A stretch of DNA of 64,000 bases, from the NCBI GenBank assembly GCA_043819555.1, contig JBDREQ010000027.1, forward strand, positions 1 to 64,000. The letters are read 5' to 3'. Made by a program: the position numbers and the translations under genes. Source of the stretch: Candidatus Zixiibacteriota bacterium (GTDB lineage: Bacteria > Zixibacteria > MSB-5A5 > GN15 > JAAZOE01). Of the stretch, positions 12,609 through 35,872 are shown piece by piece. Within the stretch, counting starts at the first letter, position 1. Each line of letters opens with the position of its first letter. The notes beneath the pieces were generated by a model. That model was not told the DNA's origin. It ran no database searches and worked only from the letters and a program-made list of their open reading frames with translations.

Positions 12609-12610
12609 TT

Positions 12611-16305: not shown

Positions 16306-17760
16306 ATGGATATTGCCAATTATTCTTCGGATTCACGGGCAATAATAAAAAATGCTCGCGAGATCACTCAGTCATTTCGTCATCCTGAAATCGAAATCGA
16401 ACATTTATTAATCGCGACTATCCGACAGGAAGGGTCGCAGGTGGAGTCGATTATCAATCAGATGGGGAAGAGCATCGCTTTTTTGGAATCGGTTATCGAG
16501 ACTCATTTAAAAGATCAATCGAGCCGGGGTTCGGTTCGGGAAAATGTGGCCGTGTCGCCTTCGGTGCAGGAAGTGTTAAACTGGGCGATTGAGGAGAAAA
16601 CGAAATTATATGATGCCCTGGTAGAACCGGAACATATCTTTATAGCCATATTCGATCCCAAATCACAGCTGGCTCCATATGTCCGGGAAAAGCTCGAAAT
16701 CACTAAGGAAGATATCTATCGGGCCATAGCTGACACTAAATCGGTTGAAGAGATCACTGAAACTGCTGAGAAAAAAGCGGGCGCTGGAGATTCTGAAGGC
16801 AAAAAGGTATCGGGAACGCTCAAGTATTGCATTGATTTGACAAATCGGGCCGCAGCTGGTGAATTCGATCCGGTTATTGGACGGGATAAGGAAATTCAGC
16901 AGGTCATTCAAATTCTTCTGCGCCGTCGCAAAAACAGCCCGGTTCTTGTTGGCGGTCCGGGAGTCGGTAAAACGGCCATTGTTGAGGGATTTGCCCAATC
17001 GGTTGTTGATGGTGAAGTGACCGAAGCTCTCAAAGATGTCAAAGTGATGGAACTTGATATGGGAGCGATGGTGGCGGGAGCCAAATATAAAGGTGAATTT
17101 GAGGAACGCTTAAAAAACCTTATCGGAGAGGTCGTCAAGACGGCCGGCAAGGTGGTTTTATTTATTGACGAAGTCCATACAATCACCGGAGCTGGCGGTT
17201 CATCCGGTGGCACCGACGCGGCCAATTTATTGAAGCCGGCATTGGCGCGCGGACAGATTCGTCTTATTGGCGCGACGACCGAAGAAGAATATACCAAGCA
17301 TCTGGAAAAAGATAAGGCCCTGGAGAGAAGGTTTGAAAAAATCCGCATCGAAGAGCCGAATCTCGACGACGCCATTCGCATTGCACGGGGAATAATTCCC
17401 AAGTATCAGGAGTATCATAAAATTGAATATACATCCGAAGCGATTATCGGAGCGGTTAAATATGCCAAGCGGTATTTGAGCGAACGAAATTTGCCCGATA
17501 TCGCACTGGATATTATTGATGAGGCCGGTTCGGAGTTTAGCGTCAAAGAGGAATATGCAAAAAAATATATTCCGCTTTTGGAGAAGGATGCCATGGATGT
17601 TGAAAAACTGATTTCCGCCTGCGAGGGTAAGGATCAGGCTAAACACGAGGAAGATTTTGAAAAACTGCGAGTCGCCTTCGATGAATTTGCCCGCAAAGTG
17701 GATATGCTTGACGGATACTGGGGACATCGCGTTGAGGCTGCCAACAAGGAGTCGGCATAA
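16306..17760 (+). CDS. tssH: TssH/ClpV-type AAA+ ATPase, N-terminal half (Clp-N + NBD1)
   Basis: Double Clp-N repeat (IEHLL, PEHIF), DPVIGR, GGPGVGKT, LFIDE, GATT, ALERRF. Confidence 0.9.
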   Translation: MDIANYSSDSRAIIKNAREITQSFRHPEIEIEHLLIATIRQEGSQVESIINQMGKSIAFLESVIETHLKDQSSRGSVRENVAVSPSVQEVLNWAIEEKTKLYDALVEPEHIFIAIFDPKSQLAPYVREKLEITKEDIYRAIADTKSVEEITETAEKKAGAGDSEGKKVSGTLKYCIDLTNRAAAGEFDPVIGRDKEIQQVIQILLRRRKNSPVLVGGPGVGKTAIVEGFAQSVVDGEVTEALKDVKVMELDMGAMVAGAKYKGEFEERLKNLIGEVVKTAGKVVLFIDEVHTITGAGGSSGGTDAANLLKPALARGQIRLIGATTEEEYTKHLEKDKALERRFEKIRIEEPNLDDAIRIARGIIPKYQEYHKIEYTSEAIIGAVKYAKRYLSERNLPDIALDIIDEAGSEFSVKEEYAKKYIPLLEKDAMDVEKLISACEGKDQAKHEEDFEKLRVAFDEFARKVDMLDGYWGHRVEAANKESA

Positions 17761-18848
17761 TGGAAAAAAAGATTAATTTGAATGATCTCAAGGCTGATTA
17801 TAAGAGCAAGGTAGAAAAACTGACGGCTCTCAAGCCGGTCGTCGACAATCTGAAACCCCGAATTGAGGATGCCGATATCGCGGCCGTAATTGCCCGTCGG
17901 ACGGGGATTCCCGTAACAAAAATGCTGACGGCCGAAAAGGATCGCCTGATAAACATGGAATCATATCTATCCAAAAAAATCATCGGGCAGGATCAGGCTA
18001 TCAAAGTTATTTGTAATGCAATTCGCAAGGCGCGTTCGGGACTTAAGCTCCCGTATCGTCCGGTGGGGTCGTTTTTATTTTTGGGACCGACCGGGACGGG
18101 GAAGACTTATTTGCCCAAGTTGTTGGCCGAATTTTTATTCGATGATAAAAACGCGATGGTGCGGATGGATATGTCGGAATTTATGGAAGCGCATTCGGTA
18201 GCCAAACTGATAGGCGCCCCTCCCGGATATGTTGGGTATGAAGCAGGCGGCATATTAACTGAAGCTGTCAGAAAAAAACCATTTTCGGTAGTGCTTTTTG
18301 ATGAAGTCGAAAAGGCTCATATGGATGTCTTTAATGTTCTGCTACAACTTATGGATGATGGACGTTTGACAGATGGTCAGGGGCGGACGGTTGATTTTTC
18401 AAATACAATTGTAGTCTTGACTTCCAATTTTGCCGCCGAGAAAATTCTTGAAGCTGATCGTGAGGGACGCGAACTGGATATGGAGGAAGTTCGAGCCTTT
18501 TTATTTTCCAAATTCCGTCCGGAATTGCTCAACCGCCTTAATGATATTATAATTTATCACTCATTTACACAGGAGCAGGTGGAGAAAATCGCGGCTTTGG
18601 AATTTGAAAATCTATGCGTATTACTTAAAGACCAGAATATACTGGCGAGTTTATCAAAGAAAGCACTGGCCAAACTGGCCAAAGACGGTTACACGCCCGA
18701 ACTGGGAGCTCGGCCAATTCAGCGGACGATAGAAAAAGATATTATCAATAAATTGTCGGTAGATATTATTACCGGCGACATATCGTCCGGCGATGAGATT
18801 GAGATTGATGTGAAGAAAAATGAGTATGTATTTTCGAAAAAGAAATAG
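17760..18848 (+). CDS. tssH: TssH/ClpV-type AAA+ ATPase, C-terminal half (NBD2)
   Basis: TGIPV, IGQDQA, FLGPTGTGKT, RMDMSE, GAPPGYVG, LFDEVEKAH, GARP; own AAGGAG RBS; TAATG overlap with the upstream stop. Confidence 0.9.
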   Translation: MEKKINLNDLKADYKSKVEKLTALKPVVDNLKPRIEDADIAAVIARRTGIPVTKMLTAEKDRLINMESYLSKKIIGQDQAIKVICNAIRKARSGLKLPYRPVGSFLFLGPTGTGKTYLPKLLAEFLFDDKNAMVRMDMSEFMEAHSVAKLIGAPPGYVGYEAGGILTEAVRKKPFSVVLFDEVEKAHMDVFNVLLQLMDDGRLTDGQGRTVDFSNTIVVLTSNFAAEKILEADREGRELDMEEVRAFLFSKFRPELLNRLNDIIIYHSFTQEQVEKIAALEFENLCVLLKDQNILASLSKKALAKLAKDGYTPELGARPIQRTIEKDIINKLSVDIITGDISSGDEIEIDVKKNEYVFSKKK

Positions 18849-18880
18849 AGATTAAACATAAATAGAAAACGGAGGATTTG

Positions 18881-19324
18881 ATGGCCAAATTTATTCTGGG
18901 CGCGACAGAAAAGATAAAGCGCGACGATTCCATCCCGGTGGAATTACTTCCCTCCAATAAACTTCTTTACGCGGCGAAATTGAACAATGATGAAGAAGCC
19001 GATGTAACTCCGGTGCGATGCAACAACCTTAAAGAAGTTTTCGAGAAGTTTCGCCCGTCTTTTTCAGTCGAGATGGATTCCACGGATGGGGAGCAGGTCA
19101 ATGCCGATTTCGAGATTAAGGCGATGAAAGATTTCGGCAGCAAGCAGTTGATTGACCAGAATGATTATTTGCAAAAAGTTTATTATGGGAAAGAGATTCT
19201 CAACGACCTCGAAAAGCAATTGAAGAAAAATAATTCCCTGAAGAAAACTCTGGCGGACAAAGACAAGAAGGACGCGCTTCTGAAACTCGCCAGGTATTAC
19301 ATTGACCTGTTAAGCGAAGAATAA
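18881..19324 (+). CDS. tssB: T6SS contractile sheath small subunit, Bacteroidota-type
   Basis: ELLPSNKLLYAAKL...LKEVFEKFRPS...MKDFG...L pattern; size and position before TssC; GGAGG RBS. Confidence 0.8.
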   Translation: MAKFILGATEKIKRDDSIPVELLPSNKLLYAAKLNNDEEADVTPVRCNNLKEVFEKFRPSFSVEMDSTDGEQVNADFEIKAMKDFGSKQLIDQNDYLQKVYYGKEILNDLEKQLKKNNSLKKTLADKDKKDALLKLARYYIDLLSEE

Positions 19325-19340
19325 AGTGAGGTGAGGATAA

Positions 19341-20777
19341 ATGGGCGAAGAAGAAAAAAATGAAATGCAGCCGCAGCAGGCTGAAGCCGCCGATGCCGCA
19401 CCCCAAAAGGAAGCGGTCGAAATAGAAAAGATTTCCGATGAGGAATTCGCGGCTATTTTAGGTGAGAACTTCGGCGATTACAAAAAGCTGGCGGCATTGA
19501 TGCCGTCATTTAAGACGCCTGATGGCGATCTGATTCGCGGAGTTGAATGGCTGGATCCGAAAAAAAGTTTCCAGCGCAAAGAATTTTTGAGCAAGAAAGA
19601 TTTCGCGGGGCAGCGCAAGCTTTTGGCGCTAAGGCTGGAAGCCTGGATAAAAACTCTTGCCGCTGATGAAGCGGAGGACGATAAGCGCAGGAAGCTCAGC
19701 GAAGAATCGGCCAAGCTCGAAGAAAACCTCAAGAAGAATATGAAAAAAGTGCATCGTTCCAGCCGGGAAATGGAAACAACATATCGGGCGATTGATAAGT
19801 TTTTTGCCAATGCCCAGCAGGAACCGGATGAAAAAGTGAACGCTTATTTTGTCAATGCCAGCGCGGAGCAGCTGGCAAATCCTGATGACAAGGAGAAATT
19901 TGAAGAAGTCTCCAAGGCGGTGGCTGATTTGTACCGGGAATGGAGCATTAAAGAGTGTTTTTCGATGGCTGTCGTTCCGGGATATTTGGGGAGCGTTGAA
20001 AATATTGACGGCTTTGCCAGGATGCTGGGGCTACCCAATAAGGTCCATGTTATGACCGATTTGCCCGATTTTGAATCGGTCGAAGAAGTCATGGAAATGC
20101 TTGAAGATCCCAGCTATGCCAGCCTGTCTGGAATCGATGATTATAAGCAATATGTATCATTGTTTGCCAACTATGTCCAAGCCCGTTCCGCGAATGAATA
20201 TGAGGATGAGGATATGTGGATACCGCCTTCGGCGGTCGTAGCCGGTAAAATGTATCAGGGCGATACGACCGCCGGCATGCAGCAGCCAATGGCCGGATTT
20301 AAGCACGGCAAGATTGCCGACGCCAAGTATCTGCGATTCAAAGCCAATCAGCCGGATGCCTCCAAGATAAATGAAAAAGGTGTCAATCCGATGGTCAACT
20401 TTGAGGGTACGGCGGTGGCAATGGGCGCCGCGACTCTATTTACCAAAGAGACATTCAATGTTTATTCGATTCGCCGAACGTATGATTATGTCTATAAAAC
20501 ACTAAGAAATTATCTGAATAAACAAACTTTTTCGGTCATTGATCAAAAGTTTGTTGATACCATGCGTCGCGATATTGATAAATTCATGAAGGCGATTTCG
20601 GGTGGAGATAATATTCTCCAGGATTACAGAATCGAGATTTTCGCTGACGATGAAATGCGTAAACGCCAGGAGATAGATATTAAGGTCGCTCTTAATCCCA
20701 AATATCCGGCACGCACCTTCAATATTGAGTTCACTGCCTGGAATGAGGATAACGCGACCAATGTGAAGGATAAATAA
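19341..20777 (+). CDS. tssC: T6SS contractile sheath large subunit, DUF5458/Bacteroidota-type
   Basis: METTYRAIDKFFANA, VVPGYLGS, WIPPSAVVAGKMY, QPMAGFKHG, AATLF, YSIRR.YDYV.K. Confidence 0.88.
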   Translation: MGEEEKNEMQPQQAEAADAAPQKEAVEIEKISDEEFAAILGENFGDYKKLAALMPSFKTPDGDLIRGVEWLDPKKSFQRKEFLSKKDFAGQRKLLALRLEAWIKTLAADEAEDDKRRKLSEESAKLEENLKKNMKKVHRSSREMETTYRAIDKFFANAQQEPDEKVNAYFVNASAEQLANPDDKEKFEEVSKAVADLYREWSIKECFSMAVVPGYLGSVENIDGFARMLGLPNKVHVMTDLPDFESVEEVMEMLEDPSYASLSGIDDYKQYVSLFANYVQARSANEYEDEDMWIPPSAVVAGKMYQGDTTAGMQQPMAGFKHGKIADAKYLRFKANQPDASKINEKGVNPMVNFEGTAVAMGAATLFTKETFNVYSIRRTYDYVYKTLRNYLNKQTFSVIDQKFVDTMRRDIDKFMKAISGGDNILQDYRIEIFADDEMRKRQEIDIKVALNPKYPARTFNIEFTAWNEDNATNVKDK

Positions 20778-20815
20778 AAACCTGTTTTTATAACCAAAAA
20801 TAAGGAGAGCCAGTT

Positions 20816-21220
20816 ATGGCACGGAGACCAACATTAGAGATTGATGGAGTTGTGTACAAAAATGTATATAGGGTTGAATATGGCCTGTACACGGCTAAAG
20901 ATGAAACCGGACGCCCTTCGGACAGGGCTCATGCCGGCGTTGTAAAAATAACGCGTGAATCGGATGAATCAGCTGATATTGCTCGCTGGGCAATGGATTC
21001 GAGCAAACCGAATTGGAAATCCGGCAAAGTAATTTTTAGAAATCCCGACGACGCGGCCATGAAAGAACTGACATGGGAAGAAGGGTTTATCACCAAGTAT
21101 GAGGAGCAGGTGCCTCATATTAAGAATAATCCTGATGATCAGATTTATGAGTATTTCGAAATTTCATGCCATAAATTAGTCATTGCCGACGCCGAGATAG
21201 ACAATCGCTGGGAAGAATAA
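20816..21220 (+). CDS. tssD: T6SS inner tube protein TssD (Hcp)
   Basis: DETGRPSD..HAG.V.I..ES...W...KSGK..F....MKEL.W.EGFI..Y.E, Bacteroidota TssD pattern. Confidence 0.9.
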   Translation: MARRPTLEIDGVVYKNVYRVEYGLYTAKDETGRPSDRAHAGVVKITRESDESADIARWAMDSSKPNWKSGKVIFRNPDDAAMKELTWEEGFITKYEEQVPHIKNNPDDQIYEYFEISCHKLVIADAEIDNRWEE

Positions 21221-21231
21221 TTAATCGTATT

Positions 21232-21260
21232 ACCGGGCGGGATAATTCTACCCGTCCGGT
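21232..21260 (+). terminator. Stem-loop after tssD (partial terminator or mRNA stabiliser)
   Basis: ACCGGGCGGG-ATAATTCTA-CCCGTCCGGT followed by TTAACATTTTT. Confidence 0.65.
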
Positions 21261-21287
21261 TTAACATTTTTAGCCACAGGCCGCGTT

Positions 21288-23066
21288 ATGCCGACTGACG
21301 AACAAAAAAAATCAGAAAACGAAAAGCCATTCAATCCGTTTACTGATGATGTCCTTGAGAACCCGATTGATTTCTCGGGAGCCTGCAATGTCTCGTTAAC
21401 CATCGATGGCAAAAAAATAAGCTATGATATTTATCGTCTGGATCTGATTCAGCAGATTGATAATCATCATGTGGCGAAGGTATTAATTCGCGAACTCGGT
21501 CAGGATACTTCCGAAATGGATTTTTCCGAGGCAATCGGTTATACCGATTTTCTTGGCAAATCAATTTCCATTTCGATTGAAGCGGAAATAATTAATGAAA
21601 GCGCGCCAGTCAAATCAACTTTTGTGGGGACGATTACCAGGGTCGAATTAAAAAATAGTATAAATGGAATAAATGTTGGCATTGTCACGGCTCAAAGTCC
21701 GACGATAGCCATGGATGGGGCTAAGCATAATTGTTTTTTTATGGATCAAAAAGCATCTGATGTAATCGGTTCGATATTACGCAATTATCCCATTACGGTC
21801 GGCAAAACCGAATCGACCGATGGTCAAATGAAATTCTGCGTTCAATACCGCGAAACTGATTATGATTTTATTATGCGCCTGGCAACCGGTTCGGGATTGT
21901 TCGCCTATTATGACGGTGAAAAATTCAATGTCGAAAAAGCCCATCAGTCAAATACCATTGAACTGGCCTGGCGCTATACATTAGGCGCTTTTGTCTATGG
22001 ATTAGGGACCGCATCGACCGAATTTACCTCGTCAGTATATAATTATGAGCAGAAAAAGACATTCGACCAGGATTCTAAATCTCTCCCGCTGCAATCGTCC
22101 GTATCCGAGATGTCCCGGAAAAGCACTGACGCATCAAAGAAGATTTTCACTAAATCGGGATTCAGTGAATCTCCAAAATTCGTCGCCGACGCTCAGGGAC
22201 TCGACAAAGCGCTTCAGAATGATCGAAACAAAGCTATTGGACAGATGATATTATGCCATGGTTCATGCAGCCAGCCCCAGGTTGCCCCGGGGAAGTGCGT
22301 CAAAGTCAACGGCATGGCCAAAATGGACGGTTCGTACTGGGTGACCAAAGTACATCATACTTTTGCCAAAAGCAGTTATACGAATAAATTTGAATGCGTG
22401 CCGATTGATGTCGCCCATCCTAAAGCTCATTCGAATCGCGCGACAATTACCAACCTGCAGACGGCTGAAGTAGTTGATAATATTGACCCGGATAAGATGG
22501 GCCGCATCAAAGTCAAATTCCCCTGGAATGCCGATGATACAATCTGGATTCGCGTTGCTGTGCCCCATGCCGGGAAAGATCGGGGCTGGTTTTCCATACC
22601 TGAAATTGGCGACGAAGTACTTGTCGGTTATGAACAGGGGTCGCCTGATTTGCCGATCGTAATCGGTTCTTTGTATAATAAAGATAACGCGCCGCATGGC
22701 GACACCGGTACCGATGATAATTCCGTGAAGGGTTTTATTACTAAAAGCGGCAACAAAATTGTTATTAATGATTCCGGCGGAGGTGAACAGATAGGGATTA
22801 TTGCCGCCGATGGAAGTCAGGTGATAATTGAATCCGGCGGCCCGTCAATTACGATTGAAACCGCCGGCGACGTAACGATAAAGGCAAAAAATATTACGCT
22901 TAAAGCCGATAGCAAGATTGTGCTGGATGGCGGCCAGATTGAAATCAAATCCGGCGGGGATATTAAATCCGAAGCGAGTATGAATATGGCTACCAAGGCC
23001 GGAATTGAATATAAGATTGAGGGAACAATGGTTACTGTAAAAGGTACCCCGATACAATTAAATTAG
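21288..23066 (+). CDS. vgrG: VgrG (TssI) spike protein, no obvious C-terminal effector extension
   Basis: VQYRETDYDFIMRLA, DPDKMGRIKVKFPW, WIRVA.PHAG, IPEIGDEVLVGY, P.VIGSLYN, beta-helix repeats. Confidence 0.93.
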   Translation: MPTDEQKKSENEKPFNPFTDDVLENPIDFSGACNVSLTIDGKKISYDIYRLDLIQQIDNHHVAKVLIRELGQDTSEMDFSEAIGYTDFLGKSISISIEAEIINESAPVKSTFVGTITRVELKNSINGINVGIVTAQSPTIAMDGAKHNCFFMDQKASDVIGSILRNYPITVGKTESTDGQMKFCVQYRETDYDFIMRLATGSGLFAYYDGEKFNVEKAHQSNTIELAWRYTLGAFVYGLGTASTEFTSSVYNYEQKKTFDQDSKSLPLQSSVSEMSRKSTDASKKIFTKSGFSESPKFVADAQGLDKALQNDRNKAIGQMILCHGSCSQPQVAPGKCVKVNGMAKMDGSYWVTKVHHTFAKSSYTNKFECVPIDVAHPKAHSNRATITNLQTAEVVDNIDPDKMGRIKVKFPWNADDTIWIRVAVPHAGKDRGWFSIPEIGDEVLVGYEQGSPDLPIVIGSLYNKDNAPHGDTGTDDNSVKGFITKSGNKIVINDSGGGEQIGIIAADGSQVIIESGGPSITIETAGDVTIKAKNITLKADSKIVLDGGQIEIKSGGDIKSEASMNMATKAGIEYKIEGTMVTVKGTPIQLN

Positions 23067-23074
23067 CGGCTTCT

Positions 23075-23449
23075 ATGGAATATTTAGCGTTACCTTTTGT
23101 TTTGCGGGAAGGATATCTCGACCGCGCCAGGCTCGATGAATCGATTAAATTTTCAATCGGCCTAATTTTGTGTACGCGGCGCGGTTCATTGCCATTTGAG
23201 ACAGATTATGGCAGCGATATTTGGGAAAAGGAATTTTCGGATTTAATGACAGCCAATAAAGGCGACATCCGATCCAATTTGCGAAACGCGATTGATAAAT
23301 ATGAAAAACGGCTGTACAACACAGCTGTTTCACTGGTGAAAATTGATGGCGCCGGGCCGCATTCGGTGAGTATGGCGATTAAGGTTACCGGTAATTATAA
23401 GGAAGACAATGAAGAGCAGAAATTTGAGGCGAGCTATCTACTGGGGTAA
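23075..23449 (+). CDS. tssE: Baseplate gp25-like subunit TssE
   Basis: ESI...I.LIL.T.RG......YGSDIWE...AIDKYEKRL, GPW/gp25 pattern. Confidence 0.85.
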   Translation: MEYLALPFVLREGYLDRARLDESIKFSIGLILCTRRGSLPFETDYGSDIWEKEFSDLMTANKGDIRSNLRNAIDKYEKRLYNTAVSLVKIDGAGPHSVSMAIKVTGNYKEDNEEQKFEASYLLG

Positions 23450-23452
23450 ATT

Positions 23453-25141
23453 GTGAACGATAAATCCGAAGCCATACGTCATTCAAAATCAAAATCACAG
23501 CAGGAAATTTTCGCCGAGATGCATCGGCAATTGCGGGCTTTTGATAATACTATCCCCGCCGCTCCGGAAAGGCTGGATCCGGTTTTACGAATATTACTCC
23601 AGTTGTACGCGCAACAATTGGAGAGAATTGACGGCCGGCTGGATATGGTCTGGGATGTTGCCGTCAATACTTTGATTCGATCGATGTGTCCGGAAAGTAT
23701 GCGCTGGCCGGTTCCGGCGTTTACAGTCATGAAGTGTAAAACCAAAGATCCCGTGGTTCAAGTCGATATCCATACCAAATTTTTCTATAAGGAAAAACGG
23801 GAGGGAGGACAGACCTTTTTCTTTTCGCCGCTTAAAACCGAAAAATTGCTTAATGTTCGCATTGATAAAGTGCTTGTTCGGGTCGATGACAATCTGGTCG
23901 ATTTATCTCCCGTAAGCGAAGAAGAGATGTCTTCAACTTCCCGAATGAGGACGTCGTTCCCGGCGGGAGCCAAATATCAGATTTATATTGGTCTCGATTA
24001 TTCCGGATCCCCAGTTGATTTGGCCGGGAGTACGATCTTCCTGAATGGAATGCCTGATGTTCTCAAACAACTTCGCTGGGCCCGGTGGTTTCCTGGCTCA
24101 AATTTTGGATCATTTCAGGAAGACTGTAGTTTTTGCCCCGGTTTGACCAGTTCGCTGGAATCAATTTTCGCCGACAATGGCAGTTATTCGGATTGGGGGG
24201 GGTTGCGAAATAGTTCGGAGTTATTCAAATCTCTGGAAGATAGTTTTATTGTTCTTCCTGAGAATTTTACTTCGACCTGGGAGTTGGGGCCGGCCGATCC
24301 CGAACTAGTAGATTTGGCTCAAAAAGATGGCTTGCGTGATCTCGATGATCTGGAGCATTTGTACTGGATTCGCCTTGATTTACCGGAAGGCGGCGATAAG
24401 TCACGATTGCAATCATCTTTTGAAATAAACTTTGACAGCTTTATCGCGGTCAATAAAAATGATCTGACTCTCTTCAAGCATACCGGCGGGAATCGTCTGG
24501 TTGAAGTAGAGCTGCCTGAGGATTTATCAAGTATTCTCGAAATAACCAGTGTTTTTGATAGTCACGGGCGTTCTTATACCCCGCGTCATTTGATTGCTCA
24601 ATCATCAGACAGGTTTTATTCCCCGGAAGAGCGCAATAATCGGCTTGTCCTATGGTTTGATTTCCCGTCGGAACTCGAGCTTCCTCCGGAATCGATAACG
24701 GTCAATTATTCAGTCACGGCCGGGGTTGCCGCAAACGGTATTGAGGCGGGGATGATTGAGGAATTATATGAGAACCATCCCGGGATAGATTCAGCGGTTA
24801 ATGTTATTCCGGTCAATGGCGCAATTCCGGCCAAGACCGAAGAACAAATCATGACCGAGGTCGCGGCCCGTTTGCGAAATCGGGATCGGTCGCTGAGTTT
24901 TTCAGGAATTTCAAGATGGGCGAAGATTTTTGATCCCCGCATAATCAGCTCCGAATGCGAGAATGGTATCGAGCGATTGAATTCCGGCGTCCGAAGATGC
25001 ATCATCGCCAAGGTCACGGTAAAAAAAGATAAATTTTATTCCATTGAAGAAATTGAGCTTTTGAAAACAAGGCTGGCAGCGTTCCTGAAATCACGCTCGC
25101 CGGTAAATACGCATTATCGGGTGGAGATTATTCAGGGATGA
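23453..25141 (+). CDS. tssF: Baseplate wedge subunit TssF
   Basis: LDPVLRILL, P.....PVPAFTV, C-terminal LRNRDR..S...W, gp6-like; position between tssE and tssG. Confidence 0.8.
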   Translation: MNDKSEAIRHSKSKSQQEIFAEMHRQLRAFDNTIPAAPERLDPVLRILLQLYAQQLERIDGRLDMVWDVAVNTLIRSMCPESMRWPVPAFTVMKCKTKDPVVQVDIHTKFFYKEKREGGQTFFFSPLKTEKLLNVRIDKVLVRVDDNLVDLSPVSEEEMSSTSRMRTSFPAGAKYQIYIGLDYSGSPVDLAGSTIFLNGMPDVLKQLRWARWFPGSNFGSFQEDCSFCPGLTSSLESIFADNGSYSDWGGLRNSSELFKSLEDSFIVLPENFTSTWELGPADPELVDLAQKDGLRDLDDLEHLYWIRLDLPEGGDKSRLQSSFEINFDSFIAVNKNDLTLFKHTGGNRLVEVELPEDLSSILEITSVFDSHGRSYTPRHLIAQSSDRFYSPEERNNRLVLWFDFPSELELPPESITVNYSVTAGVAANGIEAGMIEELYENHPGIDSAVNVIPVNGAIPAKTEEQIMTEVAARLRNRDRSLSFSGISRWAKIFDPRIISSECENGIERLNSGVRRCIIAKVTVKKDKFYSIEEIELLKTRLAAFLKSRSPVNTHYRVEIIQG

Positions 25142-26049
25142 TATATTTCGGCAAAGATAAAATGCCCGATTTCTGTCATCGGCGACATCCCTTTCATTAT
25201 ACAACCGCTCTCAACCTGCTTACCCGCATGGGAATTGATGTGGATCGGATAAACCTTCTGGCGGTAGGCGAGTATGAGAATTATAAAGGCGAAGTCATAA
25301 ACCAGACTCCGCCTCCGGAAACCGATTTGCGCAAAGACGCGTCGATAACGCTGGAGATTGGATTTCCCAGCGCGGTTGACTTTATGCCTTATCAATTTTT
25401 CTATGGACTTGAAGGCCGGTTTAGCCGCGGCGACTGGGAGGAAGGCTCACGTCATTTCATGGCGCCATTTGACGGAGCCGTAATTCGTTTTGAATCCAAG
25501 ACAAGATACCATGCCCTGAAATATAATTTTGGGATTGTCGAACGGGAATACTTGGAAAAATATTTAGCGCTTTTCGATTTTGATGTCAAAAAGGAAACAG
25601 GAAGCGATAGCGGCTACTCTCTCTGGGCGGCGTTATTGCCCGTTTTTAACGAATGGGCCGGAAATGCCGCCGGCGTTGAGAAAATTCTTCAGGCGGTTAT
25701 GGATTACAAATTTAAGATAATTGAAAATCTCCCGCGCCAATATGAAATTCCCAATGATCTGCGCTATCATCTTGGATCGATGACCGGCCGGTTGGGACGT
25801 GAATCGATTTTGGGCGATTCTTTTACCGAATGTGATTCATGTTATGGCGTACTCGTTAGCGGAATCAGGCGCGATGAGATTAGGGATTTTTTACCGGGCA
25901 AATCGAAGCGGAAGAAAATAGAGACCCTGCTGGGCCTGTGTATGCCGAGCAATCTTGAATTTAAACTGATATTTCGAGTTTCGGACAATGAGACGATAAT
26001 AGGAGATAAAGATAAAAACGCTATTTTAGGGTACTCGGTTCAGATTTGA
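25138..26049 (+). CDS. tssG: Baseplate subunit TssG with N-terminal PASTA-like segment
   Basis: R.FMAPFD, LLP......GN, LG..SILGD, FLPG, LGYS (Bacteroidota TssG-like); overlaps the tssF stop. Confidence 0.75.
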   Translation: MIYFGKDKMPDFCHRRHPFHYTTALNLLTRMGIDVDRINLLAVGEYENYKGEVINQTPPPETDLRKDASITLEIGFPSAVDFMPYQFFYGLEGRFSRGDWEEGSRHFMAPFDGAVIRFESKTRYHALKYNFGIVEREYLEKYLALFDFDVKKETGSDSGYSLWAALLPVFNEWAGNAAGVEKILQAVMDYKFKIIENLPRQYEIPNDLRYHLGSMTGRLGRESILGDSFTECDSCYGVLVSGIRRDEIRDFLPGKSKRKKIETLLGLCMPSNLEFKLIFRVSDNETIIGDKDKNAILGYSVQI

Positions 26050-26150: not shown

Positions 26151-27593
26151 ATGAGCGATATGAAATTGCAGTCGGTTAATTGGCAGGATGGGATGCTCAT
26201 CAGCAAAAAGCATCTTACCCAGCAGGAAATATATTTTGAGGAGTTGATTCGCTGGCATGCGCTGCGTGTCTCTGATAATTACGGTCTCATCAGGAAATCG
26301 GCTTCCGGTCAGGGAGCCTTATCATTGAATTTGACTTTGGCTGGAAATCGGCTGCGGGTTGAGGTCAATCGTTGCCAGGCAGTCACATCAGAGGGATATT
26401 ATATCAATGTCGATGAAAATCGAATTATTAAGGGCGAAGCCGATGTCAACGCCACCGTAATACCGGTATATCTGGCGGTTAATCCTGAATCCAAGAAACC
26501 GGAAGGCGATCCCGAACCTTCGGAAGATATTCCTCGTTTACCTTATTTGACTAATGATTATTCTCTTCATGTCGGAACACCTCCGGATTTGCCGCAGGGG
26601 TGCTTTATCCAGATTGGCCGGTTGAATATCAGCGGCAGCGAAGTCATGGTTGCTCCTGACTACTATCCCCCATGCCTGAATATTTTTGCCGATAGCCGGC
26701 TTTCTGAGAAGGCCAGTGAGCTGAAAAACCGAGTGGAAAATTTATTATCGCTATCAACGCGTGCCCACGGAGCGATTACTGTCAGCGGGACATTAAAGGG
26801 TGAGAGTTCCGGCCTTCAGATTGCATTCAAAGAAACTTTGGGACGAGTAATTTTGCATTTGGCGGCTACCAATGATGGATTCGTAACCGGCTCCAATGCC
26901 GGACATCCTCTTGATATGATTGTCTATTTCAAGAAATTATTCCGCGTAGTTTCGACTCTTTTGAACCTTTATCCGGCTTTGAAAGATTACTTGAACGAAA
27001 AGTTTTTTACTCGAGAATTACGGAGCAACATCGGCAGTTTCCTGGCATCGATTGATTCATTTATTCTAATGGAATATAATCATCAGGATATCGGAGGCAT
27101 GATAAAGGCCATAGAAGGAATCTTGAACCCGTTACGCGACCTGTTCGCCTTTTTGGCCCAGACCAAAAAGGAAGAGCTGGGCGAACAGGCTATGGCGACC
27201 GAAACTTTGACATATTCCGGAAGGACTTATCGAAACCTGGCATATTCATCAAGTCGTTTAGAGAAGGTAGGTGAATTGTGTTACCTGATCATCAATATTA
27301 CTTCCGCATCGCCGGTTTCCGATACCGTAATTCTAATGTCAAAATCACTGTTTTCCGATAGTGAATGGCGAAACATGCAGGTTCGGCTGGGGATTAATGA
27401 TGCCCGGGGATTGGGTGAAACCGATCCGGTTGATATTGATACCCTCGCGTTTGGAAATAAAGTCGCCCTTCACCCTCGTGATTTATTGGAGTCGTCATCG
27501 GTTCATCAGATGACGCTTATTTTCCGCGGCGCCCCCGATTCTTCGAAATTTGATGGATTGGGGCAGATGGATATAATTATATACAGTCTTTAA
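26151..27593 (+). CDS. tssK: Baseplate-membrane complex connector TssK
   Basis: VNWQDGMLISKKHL N-terminus, NYGL, C.AVT..G..I, G.P...E...RLP, DYYPPC. Confidence 0.85.
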   Translation: MSDMKLQSVNWQDGMLISKKHLTQQEIYFEELIRWHALRVSDNYGLIRKSASGQGALSLNLTLAGNRLRVEVNRCQAVTSEGYYINVDENRIIKGEADVNATVIPVYLAVNPESKKPEGDPEPSEDIPRLPYLTNDYSLHVGTPPDLPQGCFIQIGRLNISGSEVMVAPDYYPPCLNIFADSRLSEKASELKNRVENLLSLSTRAHGAITVSGTLKGESSGLQIAFKETLGRVILHLAATNDGFVTGSNAGHPLDMIVYFKKLFRVVSTLLNLYPALKDYLNEKFFTRELRSNIGSFLASIDSFILMEYNHQDIGGMIKAIEGILNPLRDLFAFLAQTKKEELGEQAMATETLTYSGRTYRNLAYSSSRLEKVGELCYLIINITSASPVSDTVILMSKSLFSDSEWRNMQVRLGINDARGLGETDPVDIDTLAFGNKVALHPRDLLESSSVHQMTLIFRGAPDSSKFDGLGQMDIIIYSL

Positions 27594-27615: not shown

Positions 27616-28530
27616 TTGGATATTAGATCATATATAGACGAGCTTTTTGCTTACATCGATACTTTTGAAAACCGGTATGCTGAGTTCAAGACAGAGGCAT
27701 TTATACAAACCTTTACCGGTATTTCCGCTGTCTTCCAGGCTTTGCGAAAACAGCGCGATAAGGCTATTGATGTTGATCAGTATTTCCTGAGAAAGATACA
27801 GAAATCACCGTTGACATCTTCTGACCTGCGCCAGATTACTCTGCAGGTTTTGATTACTTTCTTCGAATCGGAAGCGGATATTGACGGTCAGTCAAACAAG
27901 TCCTATCTGTATTGCCGCGACCTTCGGGGAACCAAGCGGGATATGACATTTTTTGAGGGACAACTTCTGAATTTACTTTTCAGAGAAGGCAGCCTGAATA
28001 ATAATTTCCAATTGAATTTGTTTTTCATCGAAGAATTGGCGCGATATATGAATAAGTTTGGACGGGACGTGGACTCGGGATTGACACCCGAGACTTTTGA
28101 TGCGATGTCCGATCCGGCCAAGTTTTTGGAACTGGCGCGGAGAAGGATATCCATGGGCAAGGAATTATTAACCGATCGCAATAGCCTCGAATTTCACCTG
28201 CTTCGCATTGACGCTTTTTTGAAACTTTCCAAAAAATCTAATCTGTACAACGATTACCTTCAGGAATGGAAATATCTCAAAACATCAAGTTTCTGGTCGA
28301 AAGTGACTGAATTTTCTTCCGAGGTTTGGGGAAAAATCAAAGGAGCTTTTGCCAGTTTTGCTTATTTCAGATTGGTGATTAGTCAGCGTCCGGCGGCGTA
28401 TGGTTTTTACGCGGTGATAATAATCTTGTTTATTTTGCTGGCGTTTTATGTGCCCAATAAATGGATTAGTTATTCCGAGGAGACATTAGAAAGATTTAAC
28501 CAAAAAGCCAGTGAAATACAGGGCGGGTAG
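27616..28530 (+). CDS. Helical cytoplasmic protein with a single C-terminal TM (TssL-like topology, family unassigned)
   Basis: No signal peptide; TM AYGFYAVIIILFILLAFYV near the C-terminus; TTG start; immediately after tssK. Confidence 0.65.
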   Translation: MDIRSYIDELFAYIDTFENRYAEFKTEAFIQTFTGISAVFQALRKQRDKAIDVDQYFLRKIQKSPLTSSDLRQITLQVLITFFESEADIDGQSNKSYLYCRDLRGTKRDMTFFEGQLLNLLFREGSLNNNFQLNLFFIEELARYMNKFGRDVDSGLTPETFDAMSDPAKFLELARRRISMGKELLTDRNSLEFHLLRIDAFLKLSKKSNLYNDYLQEWKYLKTSSFWSKVTEFSSEVWGKIKGAFASFAYFRLVISQRPAAYGFYAVIIILFILLAFYVPNKWISYSEETLERFNQKASEIQGG

Positions 28531-28536: not shown

Positions 28537-30735
28537 ATGAAATTGGGCAAGATATTCAAATTATTCAAAAAGGGCGCCAAGGCGGCCGGCGGAGGCAAAG
28601 GCAAAAAGGGAGAGGTTCCCTCTCACTGGCCGTCGGGTAATCGAATCGGTATTTACGGCCATTCCAATTCGGGTAAAACGGTATATTATACCGTTCTCAA
28701 TGAAGAATGTAAAATCTCCAAACGATTGCAGATATCGGTGACCGATAATACCACTGCGGGTGAATTTTTATCGAATTATCGTTCAATCTGGGGATTGGGG
28801 ACGGCCGCCAGCGATGGAACGGTTGTCGATTTTCAGAGTGAGAAAAAATTCCCCGATCCGACGCCGTCGGACAAGTTGCTTCAGTTTAACGCCATTCTTG
28901 ATCGCAGCAAAAAACTGTCGATTGTGGCTTATGACTATGGCGGCAAGGCCATCGCGATTTCGGGTCAGAATGACCTGGCTGACAAAGTCATAGATTATAT
29001 GACGGGTTGCGACGGGATTTTATTTTTCTATGATCCCAAGATTATGGGAGCCGAACTTGAAAGCCAGGCGCATGTAGCGTCGTTTGTAAATATCCTGGAA
29101 AAACTGGCCCCGCTGAAATCAAGATTGCCGATTCCGATTGGGATAGTTATAACGAAGTCCGATATCCTGCCGGGTTTTTCCGGTGAAGAACAGGTTTCAT
29201 TGATAAAATCTGAGGACGAATATCTGGCATCCGAGGACTTTGAGTCATTTCTCGAAAATATACTGGCCGATCCCAGAGTAAATTCCAATGCCGCCTGGGC
29301 CGGTTCGGTCAGGAATATTCTGATTAGATTGAAGGATTTCCTGCGGGTTGTTCTGGAAAGGACTCTCGATTTCCAGATATTTTTTATTTCAGCAATGGGA
29401 CAAACACCTGAAAAAATCGGAGCCGATATTGGACGGTCGATTTACTCCCCTCCGGATAAAATTCGCCCCGTTGGTGTTAAAGAACCATTTTACTGGCTTT
29501 TGAATTCAGTCGTAAGAAGCAAGCGGATTTCCAAATTTAGATCATTGGCAAAAATAGTTGCGACAATAAGCATCATTTGGTGCGTTATTTTTTCGATTCC
29601 ATTTTTGTATCATCATAATTTTCTACTGCCCCGGACGGAACGGGTTGAAGAAAATATTATTTCAGCCTACGATGGTAAAATTTTCAATACAACTGACCGT
29701 GAAAGAAGGCGGATAATTCAGGCTTATGATAAATACGAGCGGTCGTGGGCGGTAAAATGGTTTTTTGACAAGTATCAGGCGCCGTCGCAGAGGATTCGCG
29801 AAGCGTATAGAAGATTTAATCAGCAGGAAGCAATTCAGCTTCTCAATGGCCATATATCCAGGATGGCGGCCATTGTTACTGATACGAATTTCTGGCCCCG
29901 ATTAAATCCATCCGATCAGTCTTTGATACTCGCACCGGAGCATAACAGTCTGTTGGAGTCTCTGCAAAGTTACCATCAAGGAGACGAGTCCTCGATACTA
30001 TACAAGCGCAGCGGCCGGGCGCTGGTTTATTGGGATCTGTTTTCACAGGGAGTGATTAGTCCTAATGATACGGCAGTGTGGCAAACAATACAACAACAGA
30101 TTCAAACGGATCGAGGACTATACGGGCAGGAATTATCCAAAGAAGAAATGGCTCTTGGTGATGCGCTGTCCGAACGAAAGATAAAGAAGGTCCAGAAAGT
30201 GGCCGCCAAAAAGGCGGCGGTAGAACTGGGCGATTTGATTGATAAAATCAACGGAAATGATTCCCCGTCCTATCGGCTGGATCGGGCAGTTGCCGAACTA
30301 AGGACAATTAAAGGCCAGCTTGACAGTGAGGCAGACAAAGCCAACCTGACTATGATAAACAATTATATTTCCGACGCCAAAAAATGGTGGAACCCGAGAA
30401 CCTATTCATTTAAGGCTGAAAGCATACCGGGGGACGGACATTTGCACGTCGCGGTTGCATCCAAGGGACAGGATCCCGTTTGGGAGGAAGGGGATCAAAT
30501 ACTGGCCGGGTACGAAAAGAAAATAACGTGGAAAAAGGATGATGTTATTCATATCGCCCTCGATACTCTGGGTGCTCCGGAAATGTGGGGGAGTGAAGCG
30601 AGCGATAAGAAAATTCTAAAAAATGACTTTTCTATATTTGACATGGAAGGCGAAATTTCGTTTGATAATATAGGCAAGAAAATTAATATTACTTTCAATC
30701 CGGGACTCAAAGGAAGAATGCCGGAGTTGAAATAA
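28537..30735 (+). CDS. Membrane-anchored P-loop GTPase-like protein with large extracytoplasmic domain (TssM-like topology)
   Basis: G1 GHSNSGKT, G3 YDYGG, G4 ITKSD, G5 ISA; TM IVATISIIWCVIFSIPFLY; about 370-aa C-terminal region. Confidence 0.75.
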   Translation: MKLGKIFKLFKKGAKAAGGGKGKKGEVPSHWPSGNRIGIYGHSNSGKTVYYTVLNEECKISKRLQISVTDNTTAGEFLSNYRSIWGLGTAASDGTVVDFQSEKKFPDPTPSDKLLQFNAILDRSKKLSIVAYDYGGKAIAISGQNDLADKVIDYMTGCDGILFFYDPKIMGAELESQAHVASFVNILEKLAPLKSRLPIPIGIVITKSDILPGFSGEEQVSLIKSEDEYLASEDFESFLENILADPRVNSNAAWAGSVRNILIRLKDFLRVVLERTLDFQIFFISAMGQTPEKIGADIGRSIYSPPDKIRPVGVKEPFYWLLNSVVRSKRISKFRSLAKIVATISIIWCVIFSIPFLYHHNFLLPRTERVEENIISAYDGKIFNTTDRERRRIIQAYDKYERSWAVKWFFDKYQAPSQRIREAYRRFNQQEAIQLLNGHISRMAAIVTDTNFWPRLNPSDQSLILAPEHNSLLESLQSYHQGDESSILYKRSGRALVYWDLFSQGVISPNDTAVWQTIQQQIQTDRGLYGQELSKEEMALGDALSERKIKKVQKVAAKKAAVELGDLIDKINGNDSPSYRLDRAVAELRTIKGQLDSEADKANLTMINNYISDAKKWWNPRTYSFKAESIPGDGHLHVAVASKGQDPVWEEGDQILAGYEKKITWKKDDVIHIALDTLGAPEMWGSEASDKKILKNDFSIFDMEGEISFDNIGKKINITFNPGLKGRMPELK

Positions 30736-30763: not shown

Positions 30764-31291
30764 ATGAAATTCAACACAATATATAGAAAATCGTTTAGTG
30801 CGGGCCTGATTGTATTTTTCTGGTTTGCATTTACGGCCTTGGCCTCCGGGGCCACACTGCAGCTTCCGCAAGGTACCGATGTGAAGCTGAAATTTGCACC
30901 GGGAATTAAGATTTCTTCGGGGAATCTGGCCGCTGAAGTGCCGATTATTTGTTACCTCGCCGAACCAATTTTAATCGGAGGAAAGACGGTCGTTGAGGAA
31001 GGGGCTCAAGCGACGGCCAAAGTCGCCGAAGTGAAACCGGCCGGCAAAGGCGGTAAAGGCGGCTATATCAAGATCGAGTTTATTGAAGTTGAAACAAAGG
31101 GCGAATATAAAACGGTTGACGGTTCAAAAATCAAATTGACCGGATTCATAGAAAATACCGGAAAGAATAAGAAAACAATGTCGTATCTATTCATCTTTGG
31201 CCTTTTCATCAAAGGCAGTCAGGGTGAGATTAATCCTAATTCGATATATACCGTCAAGACGGCAGGAAGTACGATTCTGGAAAGTAATTAG
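30764..31291 (+). CDS. Small exported beta-rich protein resembling the VirB10/TrbI core domain
   Basis: Signal peptide (..ALA); LPQGTDVKL...ISS...PILIGGKTVVEEGAQATAKV.EVKPA...G.I.I.F...DG.KI.L pattern; GAGGAG RBS. Confidence 0.55.
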   Translation: MKFNTIYRKSFSAGLIVFFWFAFTALASGATLQLPQGTDVKLKFAPGIKISSGNLAAEVPIICYLAEPILIGGKTVVEEGAQATAKVAEVKPAGKGGKGGYIKIEFIEVETKGEYKTVDGSKIKLTGFIENTGKNKKTMSYLFIFGLFIKGSQGEINPNSIYTVKTAGSTILESN

Positions 31292-31401: not shown

Positions 31402-32253
31402 TTACTCCACTTGAGGGGCAATAAGGAATATTTCAGATTCGTCAACATATACCGAATTGACCGGAATAGAATCAAGTACATCCTGACCGGTATTCTTATA
31501 CATGTATTGGATCACCGCAGTTATTTTTACCGTCGCGGTATCAGGCAGCCAGTCGGCATAAGTTCGAAATATGGAGCGAGCCATTTGAGCATCGCCGTTG
31601 GCGTCTGTCAGTGACTGCGGTGGAGCGGCCAAGGTATAGGCGCCTATTGCGGTTCCTTCATGCCAGGTGTAACAGCTATCGCAAAGAGTTATTCCTTTAA
31701 TAGTGTACTCAATATACATTGATCCGGTTTGAGAGACGATAAGCTCGAGCGAAATATCTCCCAGACTTTGGATGTTAAATAGATTAATGTCGATTATGAC
31801 GCTATCGCCCATAATGACTTCGCCGTAATGGGGTGAAAAATTGAGCATAGGCCGAGCCGGGCGGAGTTGTATAGGCAGCTCAATGTCGCTATCAGGCAGA
31901 ATATCCGTTACGGTTGAGCCTTGATATAATTCCACATTGGCGACATTATATATATGAATTTTAAACAACCGATTTAGACCAGCAGGGACTTCGATTTCAC
32001 CCATCATAAAACCGTCAATATATTCCAGCGTATCGACCAGAATTGAATCTATATCCCGAGCCTCCACTGTCAAAAGGCCGTGTGTCACGAGAGCCGATAT
32101 TTTAGATGACGACAGTTGAGCCTTGATATTGACCGATGCGTAATTGACTGCACTTGTGTTAGTAATTTTTTCAGTGCAACCGCCTGTCAAATAAATGACG
32201 ACACCCAGACACGCCAGAATAAACAGCTTATAGTAAAACGCATTTTTCCACAT
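31402..32253 (-). CDS. Lipoprotein with possible C-terminal cohesin-like domain
   Basis: Lipobox LTGGC; EVPAG.NR.F beta-sandwich region; C-terminal half VIMGDSVIIDINLFNIQSLGDISLEL. Confidence 0.7.
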   Translation of the reverse strand: MWKNAFYYKLFILACLGVVIYLTGGCTEKITNTSAVNYASVNIKAQLSSSKISALVTHGLLTVEARDIDSILVDTLEYIDGFMMGEIEVPAGLNRLFKIHIYNVANVELYQGSTVTDILPDSDIELPIQLRPARPMLNFSPHYGEVIMGDSVIIDINLFNIQSLGDISLELIVSQTGSMYIEYTIKGITLCDSCYTWHEGTAIGAYTLAAPPQSLTDANGDAQMARSIFRTYADWLPDTATVKITAVIQYMYKNTGQDVLDSIPVNSVYVDESEIFLIAPQVE

Positions 32254-32265
32254 AATTTTTCTCTT

Positions 32266-33405
32266 CTAAAAAGCGGCGATAAGTCCGCCGGTTATTTGGA
32301 ATCCTCCCAGGCTGATTTTGCCGCCATCGGCATCGCCCGCGAAGTAGGTGAATCCTAAATTAAAATCGACGCCTTCGCCGATACCGCGATCATAATCACC
32401 GCCAAATCCAAAGATTGCCGAACTTCCCTGCTTGTAGATATCTTCAAATTCATTGTTTCCGATAACTCTCAGTTGCACGCGGGGCGTAAACGACCAAGTT
32501 TTATCGGGATGATAAACCAGAGCGGTATTTACAAAAAATTCATTTCCATAAAGGCGCAATTGCTCAAATACTTCTTCGTTGCTATCATAGCTTGTAAGGC
32601 GTCCTCTCAAGAGCAGTCCTATATTTCCAATAAAGCTTGTTTTGGATTTATGTGATTGAATCCCGGTCGATATTTCAAATTGACTGGATGGTTTTCTCAG
32701 TTTTTGCTCATTGGCTTTGTCAGTAGAGAAAAAGGAAAAAGTCATTGATGCCGAAAAAACGGTATTTCCTTTCTTAGTATCGCCATTGGCAGAAATGCTA
32801 ATCATATCGCCGGGATCATAATCGCCTAATCCCTCATACGGCTTATAACTGCCCAAATATTGATAAGAAATCGTTCCCCCGAGTCTTGAAACGCCGTTTG
32901 AAGCGGCTCCACCTAACAAGAGGTTGACGCCCATTCCTTCGCCCATGCGCCGCACCGGGAACGACAAGTAATTCTCTGACAGCAGCACCATCACATTAAA
33001 TTCTTCCCCGAGGTTCAATTCCTTTTTTCCGGTAGGCAGGTTTAATCCGAGGCTGAAGAGGAACCTGTCATCGGACATGGAATGGTTGAACATCAATCGC
33101 AGGTCACCCAAGCCGGCCACGTTGCTATTGGTCCCGTCATCCAACTCGACACCGCCTGATATACTGGTGGCATGATACCGGAGTTCCCAATTGTCCTGGA
33201 GAGGCAAAAAGCCGTTTACGGGAATCATCAATTGATTGACGCTTTTTTTACCCCCGTTTTCGCCTTCGAGACTCCAATTAGTATATGTCATGCGCGCTTT
33301 TATCGAAGCCGGCTGACCATATACAATTTGAGCGGATGCAGTTTGAACGCCGCCCATAAGAATGGCGCATATACTAAGCGTTAAAATTATTTTACCAGCT
33401 TGCAT
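32266..33405 (-). CDS. Outer-membrane beta-barrel protein (transporter-like)
   Basis: Signal peptide from ATG 33405; GLGDL, GLNLPTG and YDPGD motifs; alternating strands; C-terminal Phe. Confidence 0.78.
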   Translation of the reverse strand: MQAGKIILTLSICAILMGGVQTASAQIVYGQPASIKARMTYTNWSLEGENGGKKSVNQLMIPVNGFLPLQDNWELRYHATSISGGVELDDGTNSNVAGLGDLRLMFNHSMSDDRFLFSLGLNLPTGKKELNLGEEFNVMVLLSENYLSFPVRRMGEGMGVNLLLGGAASNGVSRLGGTISYQYLGSYKPYEGLGDYDPGDMISISANGDTKKGNTVFSASMTFSFFSTDKANEQKLRKPSSQFEISTGIQSHKSKTSFIGNIGLLLRGRLTSYDSNEEVFEQLRLYGNEFFVNTALVYHPDKTWSFTPRVQLRVIGNNEFEDIYKQGSSAIFGFGGDYDRGIGEGVDFNLGFTYFAGDADGGKISLGGFQITGGLIAAF

Positions 33406-34708: not shown

Positions 34709-34742
34709 AATTACCTCATGCTTTTAAAGGCAGCGGCTTAAA

Positions 34743-35795: not shown

Positions 35796-35872
35796 AAAAG
35801 ATACCTCCGCCTGTTTATTATATTTTCTCTATACACTTTTCGTTATTTGAGCATAAATTTTGTTTCGATTTT

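Follow-up and report, generated by a model that had tools for sequence, protein, structure and literature searches.

A 64,000-nucleotide stretch of the Candidatus Zixiibacteriota assembly GCA_043819555.1 (contig JBDREQ010000027.1, hereafter the window) carries a type VI secretion system (T6SS) locus encoding a 732-residue membrane GTPase. This protein is probably the inner-membrane pillar of the T6SS membrane complex, a shortened and remote homologue of TssM/IcmF found in Zixibacteria and a related phylum. We read it this way because its G-domain, transmembrane helix, helical bundles and C2-like tip follow one another in TssM order, because it co-occurs with TssC, and because its tip is predicted to form a complex with a 175-residue protein. 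We are confident that it is a structural subunit of the membrane complex; that its likeness to TssM reflects true homology is a probable conclusion, held less firmly. Its parts, in window coordinates, are as follows.

28537..30735, + strand: compact TssM-like membrane GTPase (P0001), 732 residues (open reading frame, AlphaFold model, profile and fold comparison)
28627..29526, + strand: cytoplasmic TRAFAC G-domain, residues about 31–330, with DO-GTPase/TssM kinship (VIA, HHalign)
28657..28680, + strand: G1 (Walker A), GHSNSGKT; its G, N, G and K are the same in all 121 rows
28849..28863, + strand: FPDPT, with candidate G2 threonine T109 (putative role, by comparison with WPTPT of YcjX)
28933..28944, + strand: G3 (Walker B), DYGG, then K137, at whose column DO-GTPases carry Glu
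29152..29178, + strand: G4, TKSD then ILPGF, the counterpart in alignment of the TKxDLxxGF stretch of TssM
29389..29400, + strand: G5 region, SAMG (family pattern S-[ANSC]-T-G)
29554..29610, + strand: single transmembrane helix, residues 340–358, N terminus inside (hydrophobicity, charge)
29614..30396, + strand: periplasmic helical bundles, residues 360–620, of which 549–620 align with the TssM helical domain starting at residue 868 (model, VIA)
30397..30696, + strand: C2-like beta-sandwich, residues 621–720, holding the predicted interface with the 175-residue partner (VIA C2 matches, complex prediction)

A single-pass membrane GTPase

A homologue search returned 268 proteins at E ≤ 0.001, the best 120 of which were listed and gave an alignment of 121 rows; among these best 120, the proteins bearing names are mostly from Zixibacteria. 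A first-pass annotation of this DNA had assigned the protein a G1/G3/G4/G5 GTPase set. GHSNSGKT (nt 28657–28680), DYGG (28933), TKSD (29152) and SA (29389) are all present, and G1, DxxG and [TN]KxD occurred in this order with GTPase-like spacing in just 1 of 20,000 shuffles. The set needs two amendments. G5 survives only as its serine (S285 is Ser in 119 of 121 homologues, A286 is Ala in only 36 of 121), and a candidate G2 had been missed: T109 in FPDPT, which is Thr in 104 and Ser in 17 of the 121 rows and Thr in 36 of 37 diverse members. Elsewhere G41, N44, G46, K47, G136, K207 and D209 are invariant, the T48 column holds 113 Thr and 8 Ser, and the D133 column holds 119 Asp and 2 Glu. The G1 GxxxxGK[ST], G3 DxxG and G4 [NT]KxD motifs are thus joined to a Ras-like fold, and this is a TRAFAC G-domain with conserved G1–G4 and a G5 conserved only as Ser. 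It is also the best-conserved part of the protein (mean 0.75, against 0.52–0.60 for the periplasmic part), which suggests a working nucleotide site. The protein is quite probably an active NTPase.

The topology first proposed for the protein, one transmembrane helix followed by a helical and then beta-rich extracytoplasmic part, stands. Residues 340–358 form the lone hydrophobic segment (KD 2.26), and 108 of the 121 homologues conserve it with a score of at least 1.6. All 121 carry a higher net charge ahead of this helix than behind it, which places the G-domain in the cytoplasm by the positive-inside rule. The full-length AlphaFold model (pLDDT 85.7) has helices over residues 360–618 and strands over 621–720.

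Linkage to the T6SS

The GTPase is a fixed T6SS component. Among 285 Zixibacteria genomes it occurs in 145 and TssC in 145, both being present in 143; the four discordant genomes are only 58–77% complete, and among good genomes each protein is found in 107 of 198. These genomes include kin and are not independent counts, so we attach no P value. Homologues lie in T6SS loci or T6SS genomes, rather than mostly outside T6SS loci. In the related phylum (genome G285) the gene is present in 16 of 151 sampled genomes, and all six loci read are T6SS loci.

Gene neighbourhood tells a similar story. Across 35 fetched loci, tssK lies upstream in 29 (29 of 30 informative, five being cut by contig ends), a gene for a 304-residue protein lies upstream in 31 (31 of 32 informative, three cut) and a gene for a 175-residue protein lies downstream in 33 (33 of 33 informative, two cut); locus L019 lacks both upstream genes. 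In another 16 loci, picked for being distant or on long contigs, the order tssK, 304-residue gene, GTPase is kept in 12 and lost in four. Adjacency of the GTPase and the 175-residue gene survives in three of these four relocated loci and in L019, with tssC elsewhere in the genome. Genome searches detect the 175-residue family in 122 of the 145 genomes that have the GTPase and in 8 of the 140 that lack it. Of the 23 misses, 17 belong to a single distant family, in which searching locally recovered the gene from four of seven loci read.

The relocated loci have settings of their own. In the single-contig genome of L019 (3098–12782) the GTPase and 175-residue genes lie about 420 kb from tssC and adjoin a cluster whose genes include, as judged by eye, an MglA-like GTPase and roadblock-like members. 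In L037, L038, L039 and L044, several exported PD40 beta-propeller genes in a row take the place of tssK before the GTPase; L038 and L039 also have a PAAR gene immediately past the 175-residue homologue.

Relation to TssM and to DO-GTPases

The G-domain model retrieves TRAFAC GTPases. Foldseek with the full model (residues 32–333) returns YcjX as top match, with SR-beta and Ras, and VIA over residues 33–330 gives Z 16.2 for LokiRagO and 14.1 for YcjX. YcjX (PDB 6NZ4, 6NZ5) shares the motif [WF]PxPT, but its profile similarity is limited to the N-terminal part of the G-domain (0.1% past G4). Direct sequence comparison with the 732-residue protein gave no PDB match at E 10, no close G-domain relative among plasmid proteins (best E 0.03) and no IcmF Pfam model over cut-off.

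The link to TssM emerges from profiles. We compared a profile of 37 diverse members (residues 30–365) with the cytoplasmic domain of 10 plasmid TssMs by HHalign. The match reaches 94.6% (E 7e-8, 188 columns), running from strand 5 via TKxDLxxGF and the G5 strand to the transmembrane helix. The best of 15 shuffled controls reached 2.0%, and TssM itself fails to match YcjX (0.5%) or MglA (1.1%). By this comparison the family appears to have a cytoplasmic NTPase domain homologous to that of TssM and ending in a transmembrane helix, a remote match that depends on the G4 stretch.

A second link comes from the periplasmic part, which folds alone at pLDDT 89.9. Foldseek with this model places TssM chains at ranks 4, 6 and 11 among 350,542 (E 0.014–0.032). 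VIA aligns 322–332 of its 373 residues with TssM 579–1102 (Z 6.9–7.2, root mean square deviation (rmsd) 14.6–14.7) and residues 549–732 with TssM 868–1101 (Z 6.2, rmsd 7.2); other entries in the VIA listing cover at most 198 residues, and only TssM spans almost all of the model. The last domain is C2-like (C2 domains at Z 8.2–8.3 and rmsd about 3; PKC-delta C2 at Z 8.3 and rmsd 2.9), as is the last domain of TssM by its Pfam label. A profile match between this domain and the TssM C terminus was sought and not found (HHalign 1.9%). A PDB search with one TssM gave periplasmic matches only.

Set beside TssM/IcmF of type i T6SS (T6SS-i; PF14331, PF06761, PF21070, PF06744; PDB 6HS7, 6IXH, 4Y7M), the protein shares the order of G-domain, transmembrane helix, helical bundles and C2-like end, the G1, DxxG and TKxDLxxGF motifs, the place after tssK and a tail-anchored protein, and a predicted partner at the C-terminal beta domain, the site at which TssM is bound by TssJ. 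It differs in its FPxxT G2-like motif and in a locus with a Bacteroidota-like tail and without TssJ or a recognizable TssL. It also lacks the pair of transmembrane helices at the N terminus of TssM (it has one helix and no N-terminal hairpin) and about 200 periplasmic residues; the 10 TssMs fetched are 1131–1310 residues long. The first-pass suggestion of a compact TssM analogue or distant homologue is supported, by the tie to the T6SS and by remote profile and fold matches. In the Foldseek comparison that it called for, the periplasmic model retrieves TssM and the G-domain retrieves TRAFAC proteins; Pfam and HHalign place the G-domain closer to DO-GTPases than to TssM. The GTPase motifs do not set the protein apart from TssM: DxxG and (N/T)KxD are both present in Agrobacterium TssM, an enzyme active on ATP and GTP in the account of Ma et al. 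(PMC3346141), so these are published traits of TssM and a GTP switch is not new.

Several observations weigh against kinship with TssM, and each link to it is weak taken singly. In 44 homologues scanned, IcmF-related_N is always below cut-off and appears in distant homologues only (best E 9e-5), and DO-GTPase2 outscores it in all homologues that match both, except P0177. The HHalign signal to TssM is gone without the G4 stretch (residues 215–362, 1.0%), and two Calothrix (cyanobacterial) proteins with DO-GTPase domains match the family at 99.0%, better than TssM does. For the periplasmic part, no Foldseek match reached E 0.001, profiles gave no sequence signal to TssM (HHalign below 2%), and the TssM Z of about 7 ties with or falls below those of unrelated helical bundles and eukaryotic C2 domains. 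The 304-residue protein in the TssL slot gave HHalign 0.7% against TssL, and the GTPase is not beside tssK in five loci read (L019, L037–L039 and L044). Because the periplasmic Z values lie within the range of common arrangements, the case for TssM comes down to two weak, independent links in the right order.

The chief alternative is that a DO-GTPase of a GAP1-N2 conflict system was independently co-opted as an anchor, and that it resembles TssM only by common GTPase descent and convergence. Some DO-GTPases of these systems bear extracellular domains along with a C-terminal transmembrane helix. Most of the 44 homologues scanned have DO-GTPase2 as their best Pfam match, and many of the 44 pass the PF19993/PF19975 cut-off (the window's protein scores 14 bits against a cut-off of 27), and the nearest Atlas neighbours are DO-GTPase clusters (0.95). 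Kaur et al. 2020 (PMC7159879) define DO-GTPase systems by their GAP1 gene and by the glutamate in Walker B, and also describe DO-GTPases with a C-terminal transmembrane helix and beta-sandwich domains. Both hallmarks occur in parts of the family: of 37 diverse members, 18 have the glutamate (DxxGE, at the K137 column), and in L073 (386–3430; 45 bits) and L074 (3108–6134; 39 bits) the next gene exceeds the GAP1-N2 cut-off (24), with a below-cut-off match in six of six tested loci from two distant Zixibacteria families. Besides L073 and L074, the loci in which a GAP1-N2 domain protein follows the GTPase are L036, L040–L042, L047 and L049.

Yet the periplasmic model independently retrieves TssM, colinear and with a C2-like end. 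The TssM profile itself matches the DO-like set at 97.6%, so TssM and DO-GTPases may be one lineage. (The 100% match of the family to that set is circular because the set was picked with the family's own profile; for this point we turned to Pfam and to the Calothrix proteins.) Both hallmarks are gone from the window's clade: only 7 of 121 close homologues have the glutamate, GAP1-N2 is absent from the window's locus and genome, and GAP1-C exceeded its cut-off in none of 285 genomes, in a search where no positive control gave signal. Distant members resemble DO-GTPase/GAP1-N2 systems (PF19993, PF19975, PF20013), the closest G-domain family, in keeping DxxGE and a downstream GAP1-N2 gene; the T6SS GTPase differs from those systems in being single copy, with fixed T6SS linkage, no zinc ribbons seen and no GAP1-C. 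Taking both sides together, we consider independent co-option unlikely and retain the TssM-like pillar as the better explanation.

The GAP1-N2 proteins are either stand-alone, at about 270 residues, or about 1010 residues long with a transmembrane helix. Two GAP1-like partners have weak DENN matches (E 0.007–0.02), hinting at an exchange-factor-like regulator that would have been lost in the window's clade. The GAP1-N2 slot after the GTPase is the tagF slot after tssM in several fetched type i loci. Homology of the GAP1-like neighbour to TagF was not detected: HHalign gave 0.1% despite an aligned D-x-x-G-R stretch, and TagF proteins have no GAP1-N2 match.

Putative partners of the GTPase

Two neighbouring genes complete the proposed membrane complex.

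27616..28530, + strand: 304-residue protein with one C-terminal transmembrane helix (261–279), in the TssL slot (synteny, topology)
30764..31291, + strand: 175-residue exported beta protein, predicted C2-like tip partner in the TssJ role (synteny, complex prediction)

A signal-like hydrophobic segment lies at the N terminus of the 175-residue protein, and residues 139–150 form a hydrophobic stretch that is conserved. The protein is not a conserved lipoprotein, since only 10 of 34 members have a Cys within residues 15–40. When GTPase residues 549–732 were modelled with the mature 175-residue protein, ipSAE was 0.65, compared with 0.00 for the best of three controls; 116 of 157 solved complexes attain the mark for this score, as do 2 of 215 mismatched pairs. 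Agreement between runs is 100% of contacts, with partner pLDDT at least 84. The first-pass annotation had staked its reading in part on an interface with TssK or neighbouring proteins, and one is predicted here, on the C2-like domain at residues 633–635, 651–656, 659, 678–679 and 681–684. The model supports binding of the tip to the 175-residue protein without showing it. The interface-bearing domain is the counterpart of the TssM fragment whose structure was determined together with TssJ (PMC6517824), and the 175-residue protein would take the place of TssJ as the partner on the outer-membrane side.

It is not recognizable as TssJ itself (HHalign 1.4%, no conserved Cys). Among named Atlas clusters the closest to it is TrbI (0.78), suggesting a VirB10-like fold that we treat as a lead only. 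Homology to VirB10 was not supported, as HHalign against eight plasmid VirB10/TrbI proteins gave 0.5% (local) and 0.2% (global), within the range of shuffles; the 34 family members have no Pfam TrbI match, and profile searches of the PDB found no VirB10. A search for longer relatives gave one match, with PF08308. The 304-residue protein likewise shares the topology and slot of TssL without detectable homology, and a PDB profile search with it found nothing relevant.

The T6SS locus and its tail

The GTPase lies in a T6SS cluster, in the order clpV, tssB, tssC, tssD, vgrG, tssE, TssF-slot gene, tssG, tssK, 304-residue gene, GTPase, 175-residue gene.

16306..26049, + strand: T6SS core, comprising split ClpV, TssB, TssC (PF17541), TssD (PF17642), VgrG, TssE, TssF-slot protein and TssG (Pfam)
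26151..27593, + strand: TssK-like baseplate protein (plasmid matches all Bacteroidota)

The sheath and tube of this system are Bacteroidota-like, of type iii (T6SS-iii). TssC matches PF17541 at 239 bits and TssD matches PF17642, both Bacteroidota families. All seven plasmid matches of TssK are from Bacteroidota, as are the best 10 of 13 for TssC, the other three being Deinococcus tail sheaths; no type i TssC is among the plasmid matches, though 439 plasmid records carry a TssM match. In a tree of 21 TssC proteins type i stands apart at 100/100, with Zixibacteria-like rows, type iii and outgroup not separated; the tree could not place the root and so gives no order of events. Because the locus is Bacteroidota-like, there is no canonical TssM position to assume, and the first-pass placing of the gene in the 'TssM position' falls away.

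Neither known membrane complex is recognizable. The 97%-complete genome has no match to PF14331 (IcmF-related_N), DotU PF09850 or TssJ PF12790, an E. coli control being positive for the last two. TssN gives only a sub-threshold match on another contig, and similar matches occur in five control genomes; the locus has no TssN, TssO or TssR Pfam match (TssO, P, Q and R were sought by locus scan only), and we recognized no TssA in it. The system therefore resembles T6SS-iii of Bacteroidota (TssNQOPR; PMC10781749) in TssC PF17541, TssD PF17642 and its best TssC and TssK plasmid matches, and departs from it in having no TssN over cut-off, a TssM-like protein instead and a host outside Bacteroidota.

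Other features of the locus deserve mention. ClpV is split into two overlapping open reading frames, 16306–17760 (N-domain and first AAA ring) and 17760–18848 (second ring). Several distant Zixibacteria loci show the same split, which so looks natural rather than an error; L036, L075, L076 and L078 have one fused gene of 813–842 residues. The 562-residue TssF-slot protein (23453–25141) has no Pfam or NCBIfam match and is conserved in all related clusters, and the TssG-like protein (25138–26049) has an N-terminal PASTA match (residues 21–75, just above cut-off), unusual for TssG. The genes at 6059–16140 are likely effector and immunity genes: a PAAR gene, then a 1134-residue protein that bears an HEFGH motif and matches OmpA weakly, followed by a PQQ-type propeller, a DcrB-like protein and a 780-residue BTH_I2691-like protein with C-terminal transmembrane helices. 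Two membrane Ser/Thr kinases (3968–5815 and 35873–37621) flank the T6SS cluster, reminiscent of PpkA-type control.

Downstream lies a convergent operon (31402–37621, − strand) encoding a Ser/Thr kinase with a transmembrane helix, CsgG-like and TPR-CsgG proteins, a 395-residue exported protein without a family and a 283-residue protein; it is possibly an outer-membrane or signalling module of the T6SS, and in L074 two of its genes lie inside the T6SS cluster. The GTPase could in principle be an accessory regulator or sensor that signals from the periplasm to control T6SS assembly, the channel being built by others such as this operon (kinase, CsgG-like, TPR-CsgG, a possible outer-membrane protein); the operon's nearest gene is matched in 25 of 35 related loci, the GTPase and 175-residue genes leave the core together in some genomes and the DENN-like matches suggest a regulated switch, but the operon is missing from the 10-kb flank in L009, L013, L018, L020 and L027 while the GTPase accompanies TssC in 143 of 145 genomes, we found no further TssM-like or TssN-like protein, and the shape fits a TssM pillar, so that we regard this as very improbable.

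Discussion

With the GTPase as a TssM-like pillar, a minimal membrane complex would most likely consist of three proteins: the GTPase, the 304-residue protein as TssL-like partner and the 175-residue protein as outer-side cap. By analogy with TssM, the GTPase would oligomerize with the tail-anchored 304-residue protein to form a trans-envelope channel, its G-domain facing the baseplate and TssK. Binding and hydrolysis of nucleotide, probably GTP, may drive a conformational change on which assembly or firing depends, as in Agrobacterium TssM. In that system Ma et al. noted DxxG and (N/T)KxD, found the ATPase to be needed for Hcp secretion and mentioned GTP hydrolysis; TssM was assayed mainly with ATP (PMC3346141). 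The more specific proposal that nucleotide state gates baseplate docking is speculative and somewhat doubtful.

A TssM that works without TssJ has a precedent. The Acinetobacter TssJ-less complex (TsmK, TssM GS-linker; PMC10564176) likewise has co-opted helpers. It differs in having canonical TssM and TssL and an inner-membrane TsmK, whereas the Zixibacteria candidate substitute is a small exported beta protein.

We tentatively suggest, while thinking it could well be wrong, that these loci are a distinct T6SS subtype, with a Bacteroidota-like tail on a three-protein complex: a DO-GTPase-related TssM-like pillar (regulated in deeper lineages by GAP1-N2/DENN-like proteins from the tagF slot) and a stand-alone VirB10-fold ring in place of TssJ. 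If true, this would link TssM/IcmF to DO-GTPase conflict systems, and would favour the TssM-type complex as ancestral, with TssNQOPR as a replacement in Bacteroidota.

A literature search on Zixibacteria T6SS, on TssM with DO-GTPase, GAP1-N or TagF and on membrane-complex variants found no description of such a system, subscription papers being mostly outside its coverage. The main text of Kaur et al. does not mention T6SS, TssM or TagF; its source-data files could list such loci. New here are the predicted tip–partner complex, the phylum-wide co-occurrence and the GAP1-N2 link.

Bongiovanni et al. 2024 (PMC10781749) state that type iii T6SS is confined to Bacteroidota and leave open three scenarios for the unrelated type i and type iii membrane complexes. 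A type-iii-like tail with a TssM-like anchor, a combination that half of the searched Zixibacteria genomes have, offers a direct case for testing these scenarios. The EMBO J. 2019 study (PMC6517824) presents a structure of the periplasmic part of TssM and none of its cytoplasmic domain; a compact, single-pass protein with conserved G motifs is a simpler object in which to ask what nucleotide is used by TssM-type proteins and what is switched by it. The 175-residue protein, for its part, is a named candidate for the replacement of TssJ. The proposed membrane anchor, apparently undescribed so far, bears on how the T6SS weapon evolved.

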